DNA of 62,715 nt, the filler included, from Globobulimina sp. (lineage: Eukaryota), in NCBI GenBank assembly GCA_003354225.1. It is 47 parts of 47 records of this genome, joined end to end, with 100 filler letters (N's around TTAATTAATTAA, not from the genome) between each part and the next. Parts side by side here need not be neighbours in the genome. Positions count along the whole stretch, not along the records: positions 41,443 to 42,678 come from PIVH01020391.1; 46 more parts are not named here. One strand, 5' to 3'. The position numbers and the translations under genes are program-made. This document shows positions 5,349 to 60,045 of the stretch, piece by piece. The notes below the pieces were generated by a model. The model was not told the DNA's origin and made no database searches. It saw only the letters and a program-made list of their open reading frames with translations. The stretch's first letter is position 1. Every line of letters begins with the position of its first letter.

Positions 5349-6508
5349 AAATTAACCAATACCCGCGGCTCCAGTCCATATTTCTCAAAATATGAGTTAT
5401 CCACTGCTTGGAAGGTGTGCAACAATGAATTGTCCGGATGCTGGTCCATATTACGAATGCCTGGCGACCGATAAGTGTCCAGTGCCGCAATCCGATCCCC
5501 TCGATGCAATATCGACATTTGTTTAGCAGCCTGGTCCGCGCTGTTATTTTGTATATTAAATGTCTTATCCGCTGTTATTTTGCTATAACGCGCATCCAAT
5601 TCAATTTTGTCACTGTCAATGTCATTATTAGCGATGGCGCGGTCCAATTCGCCTCGCGATACATACGCCTCCTCCTTCAACAAGTCCTCGTGGCTCTTAT
5701 TGCTGATAATACTGTCAAACGAAGCCAGTAATTCTTTTTTATTCTGCAACGTTTCATAATTGCTCGGCCGCGGCGCATCGACAAACTCATAGCCGTATGG
5801 TTTGCTGTCCTGTTCAAACTGCAACATATTGGCATACTGATCATTAAATTGCTGCGCCAATTCGTGCCCACGCTCAATATATTCTTTCTGTGCCTGTTTC
5901 CATGAGATGCCCAATCCTTTGCCAATGGCACGACATTCCGTATACACCACGTTCTTGCGCTGCACCGCCGATTTAAATTTGGTGTCCGCCAACGCAGAGC
6001 GACGGGTGTAATGATTTAACGCCGTTTGTTTGGCACTTAATTCTTTGGTATAACGTTGTGTCACCGACACAAAATCATCGAAAGTATTGTCTTGTTTCGC
6101 CATCTTCTCTTCGTACAATTTGCGCTGCGCCACGTAATAATCAATGGTGGCCGCAGTGCGATTCGTGGTGGGATTCTTTTGAATTTTCTTGAATTCTGCG
6201 CTGCGGCTTTCGTGCAACATTCGTAGCTCAACTACCTCAGACTCGTACTGTTGGATTAAGCGGTCTACGTTGCGTATTCTGCAGCGATACCGCTCAATCA
6301 TCGCCAATAAGTCCTCAATTTCAACTTCGTACTCTGCCTTTTTACGCACGTTTACTTCATGGCATAACGTGGTCAATTCTGATAATAAAGCTACAGTATG
6401 TTCTAATTTGTTGTGTGCATTTTGCAACGATTCAACAGCTGTTGATGTGTATGCCTGTGTGCTTACTACACCACAACTCACTGCACCAAAGCAATGAGTA
6501 ACTAGCAA
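5349..6508 (-). CDS. Large coiled-coil hypothetical protein, partial; GC-richer than most contigs
   Basis: About 385 uninterrupted codons with helical heptads; no introns and no family motif. Confidence 0.6.
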
Positions 6509-8022
6509 CCCCTTCGAAGCAAGCCAAGGCAGCCGTGACTAGCGACAGTGCGAGCGCACTGTACTGTAAGGTATGCAGAATCTGCNNNNNNNNNNNNNNN
6601 NNNNNNNNNNNNNNNNNNNNNNNNNNNNNTTAATTAATTAANNNNNNNNNNNNNNNNNNNNNNNNNNNNNNNNNNNNNNNNNNNNCTGTACATAACTGGT
6701 AGTCGCATAAATCCTTGCCTTGAGTCAATGTTACAATTTGATTGTAGAACTCTTTTAATTGTGAGTGACTACATTTGTACCGTATATTTGGCAAATCATA
6801 GATGCTCATTATAACTTTGTGTGTTTGACTCTGTTTGATTCTTTCTAATTGCATTTGCTGCATAATGTTTAACATCTGATTTGTTGACAACATTTTAACT
6901 TTTATAGCAGAAACTTGACGTGCTTTATTAAATATACACGGCCGTATCTTTGCGAATGTACAACCGTGACTCTTTATGAACTTTTCAATTTAACGTGCAC
7001 ACCGACGATGCTTTAAGTACTTTATGTATGCGTGTAATTTATGTTTACAATGACGATACTTTACGTACTCTTTACATGCGTGTGACGTTTGGACTTAATG
7101 ACGACAGAAATTTATTTTATTTTATGCAGCTCGCCTGCCGAACAAATGAGAATTGTAATAGCCGATTGTATAATCCAACTATTAACAAAATTGAGAAAAT
7201 GTAGTGATGACGCACAACACTACGAATTAGAAACCTTTTTTGGAGATCAATTAAATTATGTGCCTCTATGTTTTCGTATTTTTTACGACAAACGGAACAC
7301 TTTATTTATATCTGAGCCTTTTGCTACTTGCGTTGTTTTATCTTATCTCCTTTATTGAGTCCGATGTGTAGTCTTTTATGCTAAAATTTATCTATTTGTA
7401 GCACTACCATCTGCCGACTTTATTGTTTCTTTCTTTCTTTATGTTGACGTGTGTCTTCACACTAACAACTCTTATTTCTTATTTATTTTATGAATGTACT
7501 GTGTAGTTTGTGTTCTTTATTGCACCTTTACACACGTACTTTATTATTTGTTGAAGCTATTATTTAGCCTCGGTCACCAAATGTCGAGCTGGCCGTATAA
7601 TAAACTCGACGTTGAGCTAGAGCAAAGTAGACGACACGAGCGTTCGGTTAGAAAACTTTACTTTAAACTGAAGACAAAGCTCAGGAGTGAGCGAACGCAA
7701 TACACAGGAAGTTCTAGAACAATCTATACTATGCAAATATCACAGCTCACGTGACATAGCGCTAAATACAAACTAAGCAGATAGTTCAATCCGAACATAG
7801 GGGTATCACGTACACGAGATCAATATACAAATAATTCAACAATCGCGGTTACCCAATGATGACCAATGAACAAGCATGGCCAAATATTCCCATGTCGATA
7901 GTACGCGAATATCAAGTACAAGNNNNNNNNNNNNNNNNNNNNNNNNNNNNNNNNNNNNNNNNNNNNTTAATTAATTAANNNNNNNNNNNNNNNNNNNNNN
8001 NNNNNNNNNNNNNNNNNNNNNN

Positions 8023-12033: not shown

Positions 12034-13270
12034 CAATCCACTGTGCCGCCTACGCTGCCGACCACATTCTTCAATATCGACCATCAGTCCACAGTGGTGA
12101 CCATACCACCGACGCTGCCCACTACTTTCTTCAACATCGAGCATCCGTCCACCATACCGCCCCCATTCATGCATATCGACGCACAGTCCACCATTCCGCC
12201 CACCTTTGTCATGCAAGAGGCACAGTCCACAGTCACTGTGGGGCCGTCCATCCCGTCCTTAGCTACGCATGTCACAGTGGAGAATGAGGAGAATGAGAAT
12301 GAGGTTGACAACAATGACACCAGCACAGATATTAATAATTACTCGACCGTGACGAATACGACCTATTTAACCTCTGCTACCAAGCGGTATCAGTTGGATG
12401 CGCGGAGCGGTGATGGCTGTGATGGCAATACGTATGAGTTTAGTTCGTCTGAGGATGTAAATCAACTGTCATCCGGCGATGAATCGACTTGTATCACTGT
12501 GCCAAATACCAAACGAAAATCAGATACCGTTTCCGCATTGTCGATGGTGAATTGTTTACGGCAGAATATTTCTGTCAATTATCGACGCCGCGAATACAGT
12601 TCGACTGCGGGCAATATACAGTTGTCGAAATCCATTACGTTGAGTGAGCATAATCCTTTATTTGACGTTGAAAAACGAAGAAATAAATCAGAGATTGTAG
12701 TGGTGGATACTATGGATAATGGCAATGAATTATCGAGTGCCTCTTCAGTGATTATGGGCAAAATTAAACGCATAAAACGTGTATTGTCCATTGGCAAATC
12801 GGACGATACGGCGATTACGCCAAGTGATTCGGATACGGTGTCGTATCAAAATAATACGGGCTCTTTGAATTCCATGGATGATAATTGTACGTTGAAATTG
12901 TTCCCAACGTTTGTGATGTCGGACAAAATAAAACATAGAAAGGTTGGCTCGGTGCAAACTAAAAATACAGTCAGTGATAGTTTGTCGTATTTTAACGATA
13001 CGAAATGTGCAGAAACATCGGATGATGATAGTGAGGTTTATGATGATAGCGAGGCATCTTATGAATGGATAAAATCAGCACTGCAAAATTGTGATGAGGA
13101 TGGATGGGATAAATATTATAAAAACTTTAAAAAACATAAAGTTGGAGATAGAAGATTAACGAAATTAGGGGACGGAGATTGGAGAGAACTGATCCCTGAT
13201 ATCGGTCCAAGGAATGATTTCAAAGAATTATGGATTGTTAAACAATTAAATGATGATATTAGTCATATTT
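12034..13270 (+). CDS. Low-complexity protein with N-terminal STIPPT repeats and C-terminal SAM-like domain, partial
   Basis: Repeated (Q/P)STxPP(T)xF units. WIKSAL...WDKYYKNFKKHKV...DWRELIPDIGPRNDF is SAM-like. Confidence 0.6.
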
Positions 13271-13571: not shown

Positions 13572-14561
13572 TCATTCATCTTGAACATCAATCAGATATT
13601 TTTCAATAATATCTTTCTGATAAGGGATTGAATAAATTGTGGCTCCTCTTCCTTGAGAATTGATGTCCTCTCTAATAATATCATGATCTACAAATTCACC
13701 AATATATTGTCGAAATTTTAAATCATTATTCACAATCAACTGATCCTCACACAACAAAAACCACTCATCATCTTCCAATCCAATCCCATTTGCAATTTGA
13801 TGTTGAGCTAAAATGCTAATAATCTCCGCATGGATCGGTGTCAATGATGACATTATATGTTCCAAACCATGATTTTGTCGATTACCGCTGGATACTTTTA
13901 TCGTTTTATCCTTTTCAAATTCCATCTCTTCGAAATAGTGTTTATATGTTGTGATTTCATGATAAATCCAATGGAAATTTGATAAATGATTCCTGTCCCA
14001 AAGCAACAACGAATGGATATGGTCAACAGACGCAATCAAATGAATATATTTACAATTTGCCAAAGTAGAAAACATGCGTTGAATCTTATTTTTCCGTAAA
14101 ACTTTACCATCGATATTATGAATGATCAAATAATAATATTTATGAATCAAAACATTAGCATTCACACTCTCTTCTAAATACGTCACGATATTAACTGCTC
14201 TTTGTTGCGTATTGGGAGAGCTTTTAATTGTATTTTTTTTGCTTTTCCTTTTCTTATCTTTATCCACAATGACAGTCACAAGCGAATCCATTATCTGTTT
14301 GATAGTGATTGTATCATCAAAGCCATTCACACGAATCACAATTCCGTCCGGGTCGTTGCAGCAAAATGTTACGCCAAAATCTTCTAAAATATGTTTCTTG
14401 GAACCAACTCCGTAAAATAATAAATTGAAACCGGATTTCAATTCAATTAGCCACTGTTTATATTTTTGTCTCGTTTCATTCATTATTTTCCTTTTCAAAT
14501 CCTCATTTCTTGGGTGCTGCACTTCGTATTGTGTCAATCGGATAATTTCCTTTTTCAGCAT
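13572..14561 (-). CDS. ORC2: Origin recognition complex subunit 2, C-terminal domain
   Basis: GFNLLFYGVGSK, LIIHNIDG, IHLIASVDHIH..LLWD, FHWIYHEITTY and EFVDH motifs. Confidence 0.93.
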   Translation of the reverse strand: MLKKEIIRLTQYEVQHPRNEDLKRKIMNETRQKYKQWLIELKSGFNLLFYGVGSKKHILEDFGVTFCCNDPDGIVIRVNGFDDTITIKQIMDSLVTVIVDKDKKRKSKKNTIKSSPNTQQRAVNIVTYLEESVNANVLIHKYYYLIIHNIDGKVLRKNKIQRMFSTLANCKYIHLIASVDHIHSLLLWDRNHLSNFHWIYHEITTYKHYFEEMEFEKDKTIKVSSGNRQNHGLEHIMSSLTPIHAEIISILAQHQIANGIGLEDDEWFLLCEDQLIVNNDLKFRQYIGEFVDHDIIREDINSQGRGATIYSIPYQKDIIEKYLIDVQDE

Positions 14562-14718
14562 AATATATCATTGCGTGCTTCGGAAATATATTTATATTCA
14601 ACTTGAANNNNNNNNNNNNNNNNNNNNNNNNNNNNNNNNNNNNNNNNNNNNTTAATTAATTAANNNNNNNNNNNNNNNNNNNNNNNNNNNNNNNNNNNNN
14701 NNNNNNNGATTTTAGGTT

Positions 14719-37434: not shown

Positions 37435-38670
37435 AGCCGCGGCCCCAACATCACCACCAATATAATTACAGCAACCAATTACCATCGACATTATTGCCCA
37501 CGTTACAAACCACGCAAAGTGTGCCCGGACCGCCCCAACAATACAACCTCCCGCAATTACACACCGGCAAAGTGGCGCAATCTGCATTTAATCCCACCTT
37601 TGCCCGCTCGCACAACGAGTCGCAAACTGAACAGTTATCGCCGATGATAGCGCCCCTAAACCCGCACGATATCCCCACTGCGCCCACCGATAATAATAGC
37701 AATTCCAACTCAGACATTCAGATTAATATCGACGAAGAATACGAGCAAAGGAAGCGTATTTGGGAAGTGATTAAAGTGCTATGCAAGGACCCAATTGCTG
37801 AGATATCGCGCAATGCGAATAAAGTCAAAAGTTACATGACCAGCGATCGGGTAAAGGCTTCACGAAGCCGCGCATTGTCTGATCCTGAGAAACATGCAAA
37901 GCTAATCAAGGAAAAAACTGCCTTGTTCAAAAGTGCAAATCAGAGTTCTGACGGTTTTATACAACGCGCAGCGAGTGACTGTGTTGTGGAAAACAAACAA
38001 AATGATATTATTAACAATGTGAAACAAAAAAAACCAAATCATAATAAGTCCAACACGATATTTGGTGCACTGTCTGGTGGCATCGGGTCGAAGCATAAAC
38101 GACAGAATAAAGCCAAGACGCATCGGAAAATAGCCTCCCATACATATGCCTATACGCCGCGGGAAAAGAAGAATATGAGAGGGAAGTCTGCGTTTTTTGT
38201 ATCGCATGACTCAGAATCATTGAAATCCGACGATCCGAATTGGAGCATACCGGATTCTCCGTTATTTTCGTGGTTGACTCAATATATATCGCGGCCTTTG
38301 ACCAATGCGATGTATGATGCGCCGGATCCACTGTATCATGAGTTGGATGCCAAGAATTTGCCGCTGATTGATCCCCGACTGACTATGAGCAACTTTTTCT
38401 ATCATCAGGAACAGCATAAATACGATCAAGAGCAGAGATTGGTGGCCAAGCGCTATGAGGAAAATTCAGTCATGAATCAGAATAATAATACGAACAATAA
38501 TGAAGAATCCGACTATTTATACGGCGTGGGATCACGTGGTTCGATCTCGGAGTACTTTCGAAGTGGCGGCGCAAGTTCGAATTCGTATAAGTTGCGCTAT
38601 AACGAAATGAATGAGACATTGGCATTGAATTATATACGTTTAGCGGCTATTCGATCGTGGGAGACTCGTA
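37435..38670 (+). CDS. Raptor/KOG1-like protein, middle region between HEAT and WD40 domains
   Basis: IWEVIKVLCKDPIAEISRNANKV and SPLFSWLTQYISRPL resemble the Raptor motifs IWxxLxxLxxDPxxEV and SxFxDWSxxYFxxP. Confidence 0.6.
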
Positions 38671-40106: not shown

Positions 40107-41342
40107 AGATATTTGCGCTTTTAATTGTTTTAATTCCAGCTCTAAATATTCAGCATGAAAACACTTATCTTGCAATAATTGTAACTCTGCTTGCAATTCA
40201 ATAATCTGTTCATCTTTTAATTCAATCTCTTTTTGTAACTGTTTAATCACCAAATTATCGAATTGTCCGCACAATATTTGCTCTTTCAAGGCCAGTGGCA
40301 ATTTATTGATCAACATATGAGGCGGTGTTGGTGGTGGTGCAGCCGCAGTTTTTTCCACATTTTTGATTGTTTGGATAATATTTTGTTTTTGTTTCTGTCG
40401 CATATAACCATGTCGTTGCACATATAATTGCTGAATATTGGTTGGATCAATTATTGTTTTCATATTCTTGCTTTTATTCCATTTCCGTGATATTGTAGCT
40501 TTAGATGCCACTGAATTGGTATCTGTAGTCACAGTTTGCTTGTTCCACGGTGTTATTTGCCCGACTTTCCGCACTAAAAATCGTTTCTGGCGATCTTTGC
40601 GAAGATTATAAACATGTAAATGTGGGTACAAATTCTTTGGATATGGCAATATTGTTTTGGGTTTTTTAACTGTTTGAGGTGTTCTTGGTTTTGATTCGGA
40701 TTTCGAGGCTGGATTTAAGTGTGTTTGGATTGCATTTGAATTTGCTGCATTAATATTTTCATTATTGCCGGCTGATGAATTCGAACTAGATCCAGTGTGG
40801 TTGTATGGTATTAACTCGTCGTCGGAATTTATTTCAATGTTAAATGCCTGTTTGTATTCATCTAAATCATTTTCGTTTGATACTACTTTGGGAGAATTTT
40901 TGTTTGATTTTGCTGCATTGATACTGTTTGCATTTGCTGTGTTGTGTTGTGAGTCAATATTTGAACCAACATTAGCGTATTCCATTAAGTCTGCTTCATT
41001 TATATCAATATTAAGACCACCGTATGGCTTTCTTTCTGATGCATTATCGACGCTATTGGCATTGCTGTATCTTTGTGAATAGTGGTGTGATGAGACGGAA
41101 CGATATGAAACAGAATGTGAGGTTTCTTTGGCTTTGATTTGTATTGGTAAGGTGGATGAAGTGGATTTCAAAACAGATGATTTGGATGATGCATGCGTTG
41201 AAATGTTTCGGTAAGCTTTTTTTGCTTTGATGTTTATAGGCAAGGTGGATGCCGTAGATTTTAAAACCGAACTGCTTTGACTACTGACACTTCTATTAGC
41301 TCTTCGTAAACGCTTTCGTCTCGAATGTTTATAACTTGGTTT
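40107..41342 (-). CDS. Low-complexity protein with C-terminal coiled coil, internal fragment
   Basis: About 400 open codons, S/N-rich, with heptads IKQLQKEIELKDEQIIELQAEL. Confidence 0.65.
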
Positions 41343-41442: not shown

Positions 41443-42635
41443 CTTCGTAACCATGGCAATCTAACCATACTGTACCAGTGTCAGTTGGAGCAACAGCTTA
41501 AAACTGATCAGAGAATGCAAGAGTTTTTTCGTACATGTGACACAATGATCAAGGAACCACTTGCACCACGGTATTTGGAACAGTAAATCTTCATATCTGA
41601 ACATCTGTTTTTAGCGCTGCTTTGTATGGTGGTCGGGTGGAATGTGCTATAGCATTGATGGAGTTGTCGCCAGAAATGATAGCCGAAGGATATAAAATTG
41701 GTTATCTTGACTTTACGAGTCTTTATCCAAGTGTATGAAATAGCTATAGATCACATATTTTGCAAATAATTTTCAATTTCAGGTCATGTATGAATCTCAG
41801 TATCCAGTTGGTTCGAATAAATTAAAAATTTTATTGATGTTTTTTTTGTTTCTAATTCGTTTTTAACTGCAGGAAAACCAAAAATATACAAAGCAACTGA
41901 TCTTCCAAATTATGGTCGTTTCATGGATCCGCTGGAAATCAAGAAATTCTATGGACTAGTGTATCTAAAGACGACACCACCACGTACAGCCCTGCACTTC
42001 CCTGTACTACCTCGCAGAGCTAATGATGGAACCTTGGTAAAGCTTCGTTTATTTTAACTATTTATTATATTATTTTCAGATCTTTTCGCTTTGTCATATA
42101 TGTAGTGAACAAAGGTTGATCCATAAGGAATGTCATCATACAGACGTACTATTAGTTTTTTGTTTAATACTTCTTGCATTACACCAACTATATTTATAGG
42201 AAGAACGCAGTTGGGAAGCCGTGTACACAACCATTGAGTATGCACAAGCTATTGACAGAGGTATGTATATTTTTTTATGAAACAAATCACAGAAAATGTT
42301 TCACAGGTTACCAAACACCACAAATTCATGAAGTTTGGCATTTTGATGAACGAGTTCCGGCCAGTGATGGTGAAAAAGGTTTATTTGAAGAATATGTGCG
42401 TCATTTCTTAAAATTAAAAATGGAAATTTATTTTTTACTTTAAAAACAAAAACTATCCTTATATGTATTGAAAGGTATCCTCTCCCATACCAGTTGAATA
42501 TGGAACCAGCGAACAGGGAAATCAAACTTTCAGTGACGAAATCAATGAAAGATATGGTTTTAATGTCAAACCTGATGATCTACAACCGAATGCAGCACTG
42601 CGCAGTCTGGCAAAACTAATACTAAATAATCTCTG
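41443..42635 (+). mobile_element. Polinton/Maverick-type protein-primed DNA polymerase B (pPolB) fragment with ~8 short spliceosomal introns
   Basis: Exons 41443-41570, 41615-41732, 41783-41810, 41873-42036, 42080-42145, 42200-42260, 42307-42422 and 42475-42635 splice in frame. Product: PLAPRAALYGGRVE, YLDFTSLYPSVM..YPVGKP (motif A), FYGL..PP...FPVLP, FSLCHIC...CHHTDEER, IHEVWHF, LFEEYVRHFLKLK, NAALRSLAKLILNNLW (motif B). Confidence 0.9.
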
Positions 42636-42778
42636 GTATGAATAATGGTATTCCTGAAATAATGCAAGATTATTTATTNNNNNNNNNNNNNNNNNNNNNN
42701 NNNNNNNNNNNNNNNNNNNNNNTTAATTAATTAANNNNNNNNNNNNNNNNNNNNNNNNNNNNNNNNNNNNNNNNNNNN

Positions 42779-45450: not shown

Positions 45451-46610
45451 TTTTGATCAAATTCGTCCAAGATTTCCTGCGCATATTCATCATCGATATT
45501 TTTGTTATTCATTTGTTGTTGTTGCTGTTGCTCGTTTTGTTGTTGATTGGTATCACCGATAATAAATCGCAATAATGTGATGGCTGAGGTATAATTTGAT
45601 AAATTACTTAACTCCTTATGATGATACACGGATATTATATTATGGATCCCTAAGGAGGCACCGCCATGGAACAATTGTTCACATTCAGATGGATTATTGC
45701 TAAAAATGGATATATTTAAATAAAAGGGAGTGCTCCATCCCACATTATTGGTATCTAACTCCAACACAATGCCGTCTCTCTCCTGTATTGGCATATGAAT
45801 GAGCGAGATATTCTTGCTCGTCGTACAAGAGGTTGGTCCATAAAATGAGGTATTGAACTTATTAAATAATATCGGTTTCGACACATTGTGATAATAAAAC
45901 TTTTGCTTTTTTTTTACCTTCATAAAAGAGCCATTATTGCCAAAGGAGGCTTGCGTATAAATATCTGTACCAAAGGCAATTATCGCAGTATATAACAGTT
46001 TGCCCCAATTATAAAATACATTATAATGTCGATATCGACAATCGGAATCTGTCTCATTTATATTGCTTATCTTAAAGTAGGTACTCATCAATGAACAGCG
46101 TAGCTCTTCGCATAAACAATAAATCAGCAATGCACGACACATTTCCTCACTCATATACTCATTGGCTTGGTAGATTTTGGGATCTAATTCGAACGAGACC
46201 GCAGAAGCCAAGTCATGCACTCGGCGCGCTTTTAACAATTTGCCACAAAATGTACTCAATAATATCGATGCACGTAACGATATGATATCAAATTGCCGTT
46301 TACTTAAAGCACACGTATCATGCGATAACATCTCTTGTTTAAATGAGTAATATTTGCAGGGACCATACATCTTAAACGCACGTTGATATATATTATGCTC
46401 CATATCCACACCAAACGAATAATTGGTATATTCATACATTTGTGCGGTATCATTATATTTTACATCATTTTCGTAGTGATTCTTATGGCTGTTATAAGTG
46501 GGCGTTTTATTCGGCCGATATCCATTACCAATCCCTTCTAACAATGGATTATTTGCTTTGTTGTTGTTATTATTGCCCATATTATTGCCCATTGGGGTGG
46601 CCATATCCAT
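45451..46610 (-). CDS. Lineage-specific protein with ADP-ribosyltransferase-like (x-STS-ExE) domain, partial
   Basis: ALLIYC, FYNWGKLL, then YYHNV ... FYGPTSCTT ... GIVLEL ... IFS.NPSECEQLF.GG in the order expected for an ART fold. Confidence 0.55.
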
Positions 46611-47517
46611 TGGTTTATAAGGTATGTGATGATAGGGATGGATATTTGTGATATATCGATTTTGAGTAAATTTCTGCTTCCGCGTGNNNNNNNNNNNNNN
46701 NNNNNNNNNNNNNNNNNNNNNNNNNNNNNNTTAATTAATTAANNNNNNNNNNNNNNNNNNNNNNNNNNNNNNNNNNNNNNNNNNNNAAAGTGTATATATA
46801 TATATATATTTTAAATCAAATCAATTTGTATAGTTTTCCATTTGTATTATCACGGATCGCGTATAAATTAACCTAATGAGACTATAATCAGCAATGCACA
46901 TATTGTTAATTGGAACAACATGATATTAATTTTGTATTCGATTTGCTTTTGCTTTGTTAAATTTGTTGTGGAGGGGTTAGTTAAAGAGGAAAGAAAAATG
47001 TTTGTTGAGGTTTGATTAAAAAACAAAAAACTTTTTCACTGGATAAAATATCCTCTCTTTATAATTAATTTTTAAGTATACACTTTGTGCAGATCGATAC
47101 GGTTATTGGGAATAACAATTCAATTTTAATAATTATTTATACCTCTACGGTATTCAAATTAAATATTTATTTTTAATTTGTGTATCGTTCTGTGCCACCT
47201 TTTGAGTGACCAGTATATATGAGTTTGATGAATATGAACAATTTGGTGTTTCTGCTGTGTGTTTCTGTTGATAGTACATATATACTATTCACGGCTCACA
47301 CCGGATACTCACATCGGATATTAACCTGCAGAAACGTTCTAGCCACAACCATTTCACAGGAAACTAGTGCCGTTGTGTCTTTGCTACGCATCACAAGTCA
47401 ATAGGAATTCGGTTTGAGTCAATTTTCAAATAATAAAAAGTTACAAGCGCAAAAATTAAATAATAACCCCGAACAAATACATTTGTCAGTTGTCACAACA
47501 AAAAACTTTTCTTCACT

Positions 47518-50803: not shown

Positions 50804-52030
50804 CTAATAGTTATAACTTATCCCGAAGCCAAAAGTACGATGCACAGTATGCGGGTAGCCTGCCGCCACATAAGGACTATAGAATTCGATATAATCATCT
50901 TCAAAAATATTTCTTCCCCATAGTTTGACTGACAACTGATCATCTTTGAATCGCTTTTCTATTGTTAGATCTACTTTCAGCATTTCATCTGGTTCTTCCT
51001 TGGTTCCGCCTTGAATTGGTCTCTGGGTAACATAATTAAACTCCTCACCTCTGTAGCATTTAGATGCCCAAAGAACGTGTGCGGAGAGAAACAGGTTGTA
51101 TTTTGGGATGTTATAGTAAGGACGAAATCTTACAATATGTTCGGGTGTACGAGGAGAGCCCTCTGATGATGCAGAGTATTTAGCACCTCCTCCACCCGGG
51201 ACTGGAAGACCTTCAATGTCCCTTTTTAATAAACTGTACGAAATCTCTCCGCTGAAATTTCTGTTCAATGTAAATTTAGCGACAGCTTCACCACCGTACA
51301 TCTCCCCTTTAGAAATGTTGGTGAAGTACATTGGCAATACAAGATAATCCCCAACGATGGACTCTACCGGATCTTTTGTCTCCCAATCGTCATCCAGCCC
51401 AATGAAATCATCCTGCTCGCTGTAAAAACCACTGATATCCAGGTAAACCTTTGGAATTAAACTTGTTCTGATGCCTAATTCTGCAGTCCTGTACTCAGTT
51501 GGCTTAATGTCTTCACCAGGGACGATAGCCACATACATGGATCCATCACCATAAACATCTGCAAATTTATTCTCCATATTGCTGTGAATCAGCCCGGGAG
51601 TCGTGATACTCTTCGAAAGAGCAGACCAGAACGTCAGATTTTCCCTGGGCTTGTATGACAGGCGGATGCTCGGCGAGAATTCCATATCGTTGCTGACCAA
51701 AGTCCATGTTTCAGCCTTCGTTCCCAGTGTTAGATCAATTTGTCGACCCAAACTAAATGTATTCTGAACAAACGCTGCATACAATGCCTCATCCGCTTTC
51801 GGTTCAGTGAACGTTACGTCTGAGTTCGGATTATTTGCGGTATCAAAATTAACATACCGGTAGTTTCCACCCCAAATCAGATCGTTGATTCCAAATTTAA
51901 TATTATCCTGCAATTCAAAATCGACAATGTGCACCGCAGGTTCGTAATATCCATCCGCTCCAACCTCAACCTGTTGGCTCCTGAAATACGTGTTAAAAAA
52001 CATTCAATGGTCATCATTTAACCTGTAATC
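50804..52030 (-). CDS. Bacterial TonB-dependent outer-membrane receptor, C-terminal beta-barrel
   Basis: FSPSIRLSY, PTEYRTAELGIR, GEMYGGE, LWGRNIFEDDY, C-terminal RTFGFGISYNY; intronless and GC-richer. Confidence 0.92.
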
Positions 52031-54802: not shown

Positions 54803-56038
54803 CGCATTATGCAGTCCATGGACAGTGTGAAAAAAGGCGTTGTTTCCTCGGTGAAAAGGTCTTTTACGCAAAATAATAAACAAATGAGTCAATTATTCAA
54901 GAAATTAACCACTTTTTTAGAGTCGCAAGAACAGCAAAATGAGCATTTAATGAAACAGAATCAAGATATGTTTGGTAAATATTTACATGAAAATAATGAC
55001 GTAAATAAGAAATTAGGTCGAAGATTTAAGCGATTTGAAGGTGAGTTGAAAGGGAATAAAGACGCCGAAAAGGATAATCAAGCCATGTTTGGGAAGTATC
55101 TGAAAGAGAATAACAAAGTAAATGAGAAATTAGGTCGTAGATTTAAACGGTTTGATAGCGAGTTGAAAGGGAATAAAAATGTGGAAAAGCAGAATCAGAA
55201 AATGTTTGGCAAGTATATGAAGGATGGAAATGCGATATCGGCGAAGTTGAATAGTAAATTTAAGCACTTTTCGCGCGACGTCAAGTCTGAGAAACATAAA
55301 TTGAAGTCGTTGACCACTGCGATACATCAAGAGGAGAAACATCCGCCTAAGCAAATTATTAAAGAGAAGACGAAGATAAAATATAAGACAAAGATACAGA
55401 AAGTGCCCGTGATTAAGAAGGTTATGGTTAAGGCCAAGCCAAAGGTTAAAAAGCCGAAGAAAATCGTCAAGAAAGTAATAAAACCAAAGCCAAAGCCAAA
55501 GCCAAAGACCAAGGTTGCGCCCAAACCAAAGGCACCACCTAAATTAATAAAAAAAGTGGTGCCAAAACCAAAAGTAGCGCCGAGACCAAAAGCACCAGTT
55601 TTCCATCCGGCTGTGGTACAAAGAAGACCAATGATACAGCATCCAATGGCACATCATCCAATGGCTCACCATCCAATGCTTCATCATCTACAGCATCCAA
55701 TGGTTCACCATCCAATGATGCAAAGACCAATGATGGGTGGTATGGGAGGAATGAGTCCAATGATGATGGGTGGTATGAATCCGATGGGTATGGGTGGAAT
55801 GGGTGGAATGTATGGACAGAATCCAATGATGGGTGGTATGGGTGGTATGATGCCAGGAATGGGTGGCATGGGAATGGGTGGCATGGGTGGTATGCCTGGG
55901 AGGGTCCATATCCATCATCATTACCCATCACAACAATTATATAATTCACAACATTATTCTGCGGGAATAGCACCGAATGATGAACAATATGATGAATATG
56001 GTGGAGATGAGCAAGGACAGGGACAGGGACAGGGACAA
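54803..56038 (+). CDS. Block-structured low-complexity protein (39-aa repeats, then K/P, H/P/M, G/M and GQ blocks)
   Basis: About three 117-nt repeats starting at 54959, 55076 and 55193 (NQxMFGKY...KLGRRFKRF..ELKGNK), followed by compositionally distinct blocks. Confidence 0.8.
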
Positions 56039-58863: not shown

Positions 58864-60045
58864 TTATTCATGGATAATGTCATATGATATATCCAACGAA
58901 TTTTGATATTTTGCTTTGTCAATAATCCATAATACAACGCATACGACAGTGGAAAATATTGATGTAACAATAAGAAAATATTCAACATTTACATATTCAT
59001 CCTCACCGCGATCATTTTCTTTGCTTAACACCGCCACCATCAATGGAAATATTGCCAATGCCCCATTTTGAATGGATGTGCACATCCCATATGCTGTAGA
59101 TATTGTTTTTTTATCCACAATGAGCATTATTACCGGCCACGTACAAACCTGATATAATACAAACAATCCAAAATCCACAATTTTCAAATCTAAAAATAAT
59201 TTATAACAAACCTGAAACAAACCGGTTACAACGCCGATAAAACTTAAAGCAATAATTACAAGACAAAGTTCAAGATCTTTATCGATATCTATATCAAATA
59301 TATTATCGATAAGTTTTGCAAATATACAATGTGTGACAGTTAACAGTATCCCGCTTAATATTAAACATTGACATCTTTTACCATTGACATCAACAATATA
59401 TCCAAATATTGGAGTTGTCACAATTGCAATAATCCAAACAATTAATATCAATGTATTTGCTTTTGAGTAGCTGTAATCATAGGTACTATGAATAAATGAC
59501 GAAGCAATATTCATCCAACTCATTGTGATGCCAGAATACAAAACTAATATTAATGTGATTAGCCAATATCTGACATCCCATTTTTTGATATCAAACCAAA
59601 TGTTTTTAGCAAATGTAATCAAATTAAAATCATCCTTGTCATCACTATCAGGCAATAAATTGTCACCCATTTCATCGATGGGTAATGAGGTACGATGGCT
59701 GCGATCGTTTCGATAATAATTAATGTAAATAATTAAAGCAATCAGCAATAAAATGGATATTATTAATAAAAGTATTCCAGAAATAAACGCAAATATAATA
59801 CCATACAAATTGTACAATTCAAATATGATTGAAAATAAAGCAATGTTTGCCAACGCAGCAAATGCAATATTTGTTGACATAGCAAATGATATTTCATTTT
59901 TATCAAAAAATTCACATAAAAATGCTTTTCGAACTACAGTCCATATTTCAGCAAATCCGCCGTACAGTGATCTTCCTATCGCCATCACAATGAAATTGAA
60001 TGATATTTGTTTGATGCAACCAACAACAAATAAAATATGTGAAAT
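58864..60045 (-). CDS. MFS transporter, MFSD1-like, 5'-partial; probable intron near 59149-59211
   Basis: IGRSLYG, TPIFGYIVDVNGKR, WPVIMLIVDK...TAYGMCTSIQNGAL. Confidence 0.85.
   Translation of the reverse strand: MSHILFVVGCIKQISFNFIVMAIGRSLYGGFAEIWTVVRKAFLCEFFDKNEISFAMSTNIAFAALANIALFSIIFELYNLYGIIFAFISGILLLIISILLLIALIIYINYYRNDRSHRTSLPIDEMGDNLLPDSDDKDDFNLITFAKNIWFDIKKWDVRYWLITLILVLYSGITMSWMNIASSFIHSTYDYSYSKANTLILIVWIIAIVTTPIFGYIVDVNGKRCQCLILSGILLTVTHCIFAKLIDNIFDIDIDKDLELCLVIIALSFIGVVTGLFQVCYKLFLDLKIVDFGLFVLYQVCTWPVIMLIVDKKTISTAYGMCTSIQNGALAIFPLMVAVLSKENDRGEDEYVNVEYFLIVTSIFSTVVCVVLWIIDKAKYQNSLDISYDIIHE

Follow-up and report, generated by a model that had tools for sequence, protein, structure and literature searches.

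A Polinton-type DNA polymerase gene fragment densely split by putative short spliceosomal introns in a Globobulimina sp. assembly

One contig of the Globobulimina sp. assembly GCA_003354225.1 carries a fragment of a gene for a Polinton-type, protein-primed DNA polymerase (pPolB) whose coding sequence appears to be split by short spliceosomal introns. With a probability of roughly two in three, we consider this to be a selected, multi-copy polymerase gene with genuine introns that is passed on by DNA-based copying, based on its homology, its exon/intron structure, the presence of multiple copies, the intron positions shared among them and an excess of synonymous changes. The gene fragment is exactly one whole contig (positions 41443-42678, 1236 bp, 34.9% GC) of the 62,715-base stretch of DNA that was analyzed, here called the window. 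The window strings together 47 unlinked contigs, each 1235-1237 bp long and placed in order of length, with 46 artificial spacers (each N44 + TTAATTAATTAA + N44) between them, so the surroundings of the polymerase contig are not its genomic flanks and, given the artificial concatenation, any feature that apparently crosses a spacer is an artefact of joining. All features of the polymerase gene described below lie on the plus strand; the longest open reading frame (ORF) of the minus strand (92 aa) had no Pfam match, and a scan against Rfam gave one match only, at E 0.97.

Eight exons make up the fragment and, joined, they give 842 nt, or 280 codons, with zero stops. Exon 1 (41443-41570, frame 1) is partial, starting at the contig end upstream of the GGRxE motif; it aligns with the reference polymerases described below from amino acid 7 of the model and is covered by a tblastn high-scoring segment pair (HSP) at 41443-41571. 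Intron 1 (41571-41614; 44 nt, 30% GC) separates it from exon 2 (41615-41732), which encodes YGGRVE and motif A, YLDFTSLYP, and intron 2 (41733-41782; 50 nt, 24% GC) leads to the 28-nt exon 3 (41783-41810), whose product VMYESQYPV fills the reference alignment without a gap. Beyond intron 3 (41811-41872; 62 nt, 21% GC) lies the 164-nt exon 4 (41873-42036) with a conserved PPR..HFPVLP block, followed by intron 4 (42037-42079; 43 nt, 19% GC) and exon 5 (42080-42145), which holds a cysteine cluster of the form CxxC ... CxH. Next come intron 5 (42146-42199; 54 nt, 24% GC), exon 6 (42200-42260), drawn from its open frame and the reference alignment, intron 6 (42261-42306; 46 nt, 24% GC), placed by the profile boundary test given below, and exon 7 (42307-42422; EVWHF ... 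FLKLK), which a tblastn HSP covers at 42306-42425. Intron 7 (42423-42474; 52 nt, 17% GC) reads GA..AG as drawn, with boundaries ambiguous by up to 3 nt. Exon 8 (42475-42635) extends to the first part of motif B, AKLILNNL plus a split W codon that awaits the next exon, and the contig ends inside intron 8, which begins with GTATGA and runs off the contig (42636-42678, 23% GC). The phases of introns 1 to 8 are 2, 0, 1, 0, 0, 1, 0 and 2, and the intron density amounts to one per ~105 nt of coding sequence. The intron coordinates in the initial annotation of this stretch were all correct, including GT..AG termini for introns 1-6, an irregular donor for the seventh intron and an eighth donor at 42636; its count of eight introns is better put as seven complete introns (43-62 nt) and the first 43 nt of an eighth. 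Its single reading frame after intron removal was likewise recovered, as were the motifs it had named (YGGRVE, YLDFTSLYP, LCHIC...ECHHTD/EER and AKLILNNL, a slash here and below marking an exon junction).

Assignment of the protein to the Polinton/adintovirus type of protein-primed PolB, which had been proposed earlier together with its Cys insert, was borne out by comparison with homologues. Pfam scans of single exons (seven of the eight, exon 3 being too short to submit) identified no relevant family, and since single exons are too short for Pfam, PolB references were gathered instead. An exhaustive HMMER search with exon 4 gave five matches, among them P0002 and P0006 (these and similar labels denote database proteins used in the analysis), the latter a spider 'DNA-directed DNA polymerase' containing a Polinton PolB piece. 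The other three, P0003-P0005, were dropped as spurious, being repeat proteins that were matched in 6-7 stretches. P0006 retrieved 82 proteins, 80 of them with precomputed PF03175, including spider, mussel, fish, newt and adintovirus entries. The spliced model matched 80 of these 82 references, the best being P0038 (150.5 bits), which itself matches PF03175 at E 2.3e-36, while P0033, 'PolB-C Pimephales minnow adintovirus', scored 132 bits; each of the top matches is one domain that spans about residues 7-280 of the model. When the references were compared by tblastn with the whole window, without any gene model, all 49 HSPs fell inside the polymerase contig, and those of P0038 formed exon-sized blocks in frames 1, 3, 1, 2, 3 and 1 that are colinear in the reference. 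The fragment thus shares with group 1 Polinton/Maverick pPolB and adintovirus PolB (PF03175) the same domain, motif A, the start of motif B and the Cys insert between them, and is colinear with the spider, mussel, fish and adintovirus references over 274 residues.

At the level of single residues, the model retains 38 of 48 columns whose conservation among 54 references reaches 90% or more. These include the motif A aspartate and SLYP (D75, S78, L79, Y80 and P81), three cysteines and an arginine of the Cys-cluster insert (C151, C154, C164 and R171) and the lysine and asparagine of motif B (Kx3NSxYG), in which K274, L277 and N278 are conserved, the residue after N278 is N where most references have S, and the rest of the motif would come after intron 8, off the contig. 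The fragment is the palm and fingers part of the enzyme, from before motif A to motif B, and the polymerase is presumed to be active. The protein is very divergent: its best identity to the references is 39%, the references themselves keep 35-48 of the 48 columns (5th percentile 41, median 47), and in a quick maximum-likelihood tree its end branch measures 2.86 against a median of 0.3, adjoining P0060 (Shimodaira-Hasegawa-like approximate likelihood ratio test, SH-aLRT, 95). Because the references were gathered starting from a spider protein, animals are over-represented among them, and the tree cannot name the host. The Atlas look-alikes of exon 8 are Preplasmiviricota and PF03175 clusters at 0.97, a recognition below threshold that serves as a lead only. 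The spider protein P0006 (Caerostris extrusa, 540 aa) is itself a scrambled tandem repetition of one ~130-residue Polinton PolB piece, in the order motif B piece, Cys-cluster region and post-motif C piece, and is probably a gene model laid over rearranged element debris.

Several measures suggest that the interruptions are spliceosomal introns. The exons have a GC content of 40.6% and the introns 22.5%, and the 43 nt after the eighth donor are at 23%. A de novo search for chains of GT..AG segments of 38-75 nt with low GC that keep the frame open found seven introns in the polymerase contig, compared to at most four in the other 93 contig-strands of the window and at most five in reversed controls. 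With a profile built from the 54 references only, the spliced model being excluded, the model scored 202.4 bits, whereas the three frames left unspliced reached 48.5, 35.4 and 4.5 bits. The same profile was used to score 237-428 frame-keeping, stop-free boundary variants per intron; the proposed length was optimal for every intron, and for introns 1-6 no GT..AG pair other than the proposed one reached the top-scoring class (for intron 1, out of 338 variants). No alignment gap relative to the PolB references occurs at any of the seven junctions, as illustrated by ...PR/AALYGGR, SLYPS/V, ...GTL/IFSLC, HTD/EER, which equals the reference HTDEER, and LKLKM/VSSPIP against LRLKQQASGYPS. GT..AG termini whose removal restores frame and colinearity, as is expected of U2-type introns, were found for introns 1-6 and, as far as its donor, for intron 8, but not for intron 7. 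Given this frame, this colinearity and the gain in profile score on removal, the interruptions behave as spliceosomal introns, and we infer from these features of the sequence that the gene is spliced. Membership of the introns in an introner family was considered and rejected, as the similarity among the seven introns does not exceed that among shuffled sequences: their pairwise global scores had a mean of -0.9 and a maximum of 8.0, the latter equal to the maximum among shuffled sequences (mean -4.2, sd 3.8).

Intron 7 is the irregular member of the set. Its length of 52 nt is right, the donor is non-canonical and no canonical pair fits, as no alternative with a GT donor gets to exon 8 in frame; the reference-only profile slightly favors a shift of the boundaries to 42425-42476 or 42426-42477, at 206.2 bits compared to 202.4 bits for the GA..AG pair. 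In order to compare the stretch with public data, contigs from one run containing it were aligned to it at 80% identity or higher. Three pieces match the polymerase contig at 99% or higher and four are diverged, and positions 41658-41806 and 42407-42459 are uncovered, so the odd intron 7 donor is without a second witness. The larvacean Oikopleura dioica and the copepod Eurytemora affinis are both reported to have GA-AG introns in abundance (PMC7072748), which leaves a place for a co-sampled animal as carrier of the gene. The AT-rich interior of intron 7 (42409-42445) has a 37-nt, 81%-identical match in an 11-kb contig from another run of the sample, which is taken as a chance match of low complexity.

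Additional support comes from other copies of the gene. In a library of 1.84 billion proteins the gene surfaced only as two scraps of 80-100 residues, P0001 and P0002, both of which are prokaryote-style gene calls in public data that read through related copies. P0001, the only match of a word-index search with exon 2, is 87% identical to the window copy there (32 of 37 residues) and departs after SLYPSV; identity is 4 of 17 residues across intron 2, 2 of 7 across exon 3 (out of frame) and 4 of 16 across intron 3 before rising to 14 of 18 at the start of exon 4, and both the position of the intron 2 donor and its GT are retained. P0002 is 80% identical across all 54 residues of exon 4 and departs directly after ...ANDGTL/V, from which it follows that its intron 4 donor is still GT. 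Searches with exon 4 and with an alignment of exon 2 gave no relative in metagenome_contigs or viral_contigs. Within the public run, record 2 spans intron 3 and exon 4 and has nine substitutions and four indel events in 35 nt of the intron, where the AG is kept, compared to eight substitutions and no indels in 89 nt of the exon, in which five changed codons are synonymous and two are not. Records 4 and 5 resemble the window copy only from 41870/41871, that is, from 2-3 bases before exon 4, and are preceded by different T-rich tails, while record 7 is alike across 42552-42640, to 5 nt beyond the intron 8 donor, and then unlike. Four of the eight intron positions (the donors of introns 2, 4 and 8 and the acceptor of intron 3) are therefore shared with other copies. 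Across the changed exon codons, 7 of 10 are synonymous and the three replacements are conservative (M>L, V>I and A>T), a small sample that points to purifying selection on the exons. Records 2, 4 and 5 and the window copy make at least four distinct copies of exon 4 in one run, and record 7 differs over exon 8; such a set of several diverged copies, counted within the same sample and joined by P0001 and P0002, is what is seen for Polinton/Maverick pPolB, which is likewise multi-copy. Two further runs of the same sample, X2 and X3, contained almost no words of the stretch and no paralog pieces, which is no proof of absence and was not used for the question of the carrier.

The explanation that we favor would make this gene a replicase gene carried by a lineage of endogenous Polinton-like elements. 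Its transcription would be nuclear, and it would depend on the host spliceosome. The element would multiply as DNA with no RNA intermediate, and each new copy would then inherit the introns. The copies do share intron positions, their introns have drifted fast, with indels, and changes in their exons are mostly synonymous. Several points weigh against it. The count of synonymous and non-synonymous changes is drawn from 10 codons on two short contig pieces, and what were scored as copies could in part be alleles or come from related organisms in a mixed sample. Since the 1.2-kb contig ends inside the polymerase gene, it is copy number by itself that suggests membership of a mobile element; the exonuclease motifs I-III, motif C and the TPR1/TPR2 insertions linked to protein priming would fall beyond the 1236 bp, as would any integrase, capsid, packaging ATPase or protease genes and terminal inverted repeats. 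Intron 7 combines a non-canonical donor with an acceptor that lacks a pyrimidine run, so this copy may not be spliced correctly. Finally, the strong divergence of the protein (a branch of 2.86, with 38 of 48 columns kept, below the 5th percentile of the references) would also fit relaxed constraint.

A separate question, whose answer is independent of that explanation, is which organism carried the gene. Most of the window contigs are foram-like, which gives a prior in favor of a foraminifer. A Pfam scan took in the longest ORF of each of 40 other contigs, leaving aside six whose ORFs fell below 142 aa, and gave matches for 10: UCH, ORC2, CLN3, ArfGap+Ank, RCC1-like, TTL, LRR_6, DHHC, MFS_1 and a TonB-dependent receptor. 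No Polinton-type gene (integrase, capsid, ATPase or protease) was found among these 40 ORFs, which come from contigs unlinked to the polymerase. The ORC2 gene (13575-14567, minus strand) is near-complete, with RecA-like and WHD domains in an uninterrupted ORF of 331 codons. Its best named relatives are foraminiferal, namely an Ammonia transcript of MMETSP (56%) and Reticulomyxa filosa, and Atlas gave no useful taxon for it. The main organism of the window is therefore likely foram-like. Transcript-derived ORC2 relatives are ~400 aa long and genomic ORFs ~310-330 aa, a difference suggesting that forams have an intron immediately before this exon; on the window contig no intron boundary is visible, the upstream sequence being too short to show one. 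The foram-like ORFs are uninterrupted for 1-1.2 kb, up to the full contig, and the intron candidates that the chain search gave in these contigs look like chance.

Against this background the polymerase contig is an outlier in intron density, since a dense chain of short introns occurs in none of the other 93 contig-strands, and this raises a rival reading at slightly less than even odds, namely that the contig comes from a co-sampled, intron-rich eukaryote such as prey, an epibiont or a small animal. Codon usage points the same way: the polymerase fits the eight foram-like ORFs worst, with r 0.40 and a log-likelihood ratio of 0.018 bits/codon, versus 0.52-0.84 and 0.045-0.31 for those ORFs when each was left out in turn. 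The codon usage of mobile elements is, on the other hand, often unlike that of host genes. The third-position GC content of the polymerase contig (GC3, 0.31) fits the 0.25-0.40 of the foram-like ORFs, as does its intron size, and the protein lies outside the animal references. Reticulomyxa bears on both sides, having ~2 introns per gene, which is far from the density seen here, with an average intron length of 87 bp, which is short (Table 1, PMC13746701); canonical spliceosomal introns have been reported in foram genes (PMC3079666), and R. filosa Polinton DNA polymerases are listed in a figure legend of the preprint 10.1101/809541. The suggestion of a nematode-like carrier is without specific support, as TTTCAG-type acceptors (two of seven) are not specific, the protein falls outside the animal references, and the core genes of nematode Mavericks are said to lack introns. 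The broader idea of a carrier other than the main protist draws support from intron density, codon usage and the GA-AG introns of the copepod and larvacean, and is countered by the dominance of foram-like contigs and the presence of Polinton polymerases in forams. We put a foraminifer-like main organism and a co-sampled intron-rich eukaryote at roughly even odds.

The intron density itself, which the initial annotation had set against what is known of such genes, is indeed at odds with descriptions of Polinton/Maverick core genes as compact and intronless, whereas here seven introns and the beginning of an eighth lie in 842 nt. Intact vertebrate Mavericks are described as encoding 'intronless ORFs', in agreement, it is said, with Kapitonov and Jurka 2006 (PMC8097293). 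The same is said of the core genes of a nematode Maverick, where introns are confined to cargo genes (10.1101/2022.07.12.499685), and in one survey the genes of protist endogenous viruses were called with a prokaryotic tool on the ground that these viruses 'do not contain introns' (PMC10120064). In the accessible text of a paper on nematode Polinton polymerase the only intron mentioned is a group I intron. No Polinton-type polymerase densely split by spliceosomal introns turned up in the portions of the literature available, the supplements of which, for example the nematode per-taxon pPolB lists, may hold cases.

These descriptions of intronless core genes also favor an unlikely alternative, namely domestication, in which a Polinton polymerase became a host gene, or a small host gene family, long ago and is now an ordinary intron-bearing cellular gene outside any mobile element. 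An intron density as high as that of the most intron-rich cellular genes, a protein on a long, isolated branch and exon changes that are mostly synonymous would all suit such a history. It is opposed by the at least four diverged exon 4 copies in one run and the two database gene calls, which resemble a repeat family, and no paper on a domesticated protein-primed PolB turned up in a literature search that was aimed at introns rather than at domestication. The initial annotation had offered a heavily intronised mobile lineage and a domesticated polymerase side by side; given the copies of exon 4, the former fits better than a single domesticated gene.

It is also improbable, in our judgment, that genuine introns here lie in a dead relic, the family or at any rate this copy having decayed until no working polymerase is made. 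The irregular donor of intron 7, the count of conserved columns at the low end of the range and the very long terminal branch would be in keeping with decay, and 96% of vertebrate Maverick loci are reported to be degraded (PMC8097293). What speaks against decay is that 280 spliced codons are without stop or frameshift, that the catalytic motif residues are retained, that seven of ten changed codons are synonymous and that indels are confined to the intron. An artefact, whether an open frame arising by chance or an assembly chimera of unrelated pieces, is highly improbable, for despite the breaks of the public-run contigs at 41658-41806 and 42407-42459 and a low depth, the model keeps its colinearity with homologues through every junction, scores 202 bits spliced versus at most 48 bits unspliced, is matched by three public-run pieces at 99% or higher and shares its layout with independent copies.

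Among described systems, the nearest precedent for an intron-bearing Polinton-type gene is that of dinoflagellate Maverick-Polinton-like proviruses populated by introners (PMC11957031), which are likewise Polinton-type elements with spliceosomal-type introns in full-length copies. Their introns form recognizable introner families, whereas the introns here do not form a repeat family, and the present contig further differs in being AT-rich with introns of 43-62 nt. Nematode Mavericks (10.1101/2022.07.12.499685) illustrate that introns can travel with a DNA-based element into new copies and even into other species; those introns, however, sit in host genes captured as cargo, and in the present case it is the polymerase that is interrupted. 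The Reticulomyxa filosa polymerases, cited as GenBank entries in the figure legend (10.1101/809541), indicate that forams carry Polinton-type PolB genes. The fragment stands apart from the Polinton/adintovirus PolB references in its low best identity and its very long branch, and from the vertebrate and nematode Mavericks and protist endogenous viruses described as intronless in its intron every ~105 nt.

The boldest form of the idea, which we advance tentatively and at somewhat less than an even chance, is that of a Polinton-like lineage whose replicase gene has come to match the most intron-rich cellular genes in intron density (at least eight introns in 0.84 kb, one of them non-canonical) and which is still multiplying and under selection. 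If true, this would be a virus-like element unable to make its polymerase without the host spliceosome. Were the carrier a foraminifer, an intron-dense mobile gene would lie inside an otherwise intron-poor genome, which would point to element-specific intron gain or to import, introns included, from an intron-rich donor. Polintons/Mavericks are usually sought with prokaryote-style gene callers that assume no introns (PMC10120064), and a lineage with its polymerase split every ~100 nt would escape such screens. If the gene is expressed, virus-like elements could persist for a long time as spliced nuclear genes, with introns faithfully copied by DNA-based self-synthesis, and intron positions could serve to mark such lineages and their transfers from host to host.

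Three observations concern other contigs of the window. A TonB-dependent receptor beta-barrel (50807-52003, minus strand, E 4.7e-25) is encoded on a contig of 42% GC, which is bacterial and was mixed into the eukaryote assembly. The MFS_1 transporter ORF (58867-60045, minus strand) is probably eukaryotic rather than bacterial, its codon usage having an r of 0.87 with that of the foram-like ORFs. Six contigs are open nearly end to end (396-412 codons) with no Pfam match (5351-6538, 12034-13269, 37437-38669, 40107-41342, 45453-46685 and 54803-56038), and these may encode long lineage-specific or low-complexity foram proteins, or may be repeats.

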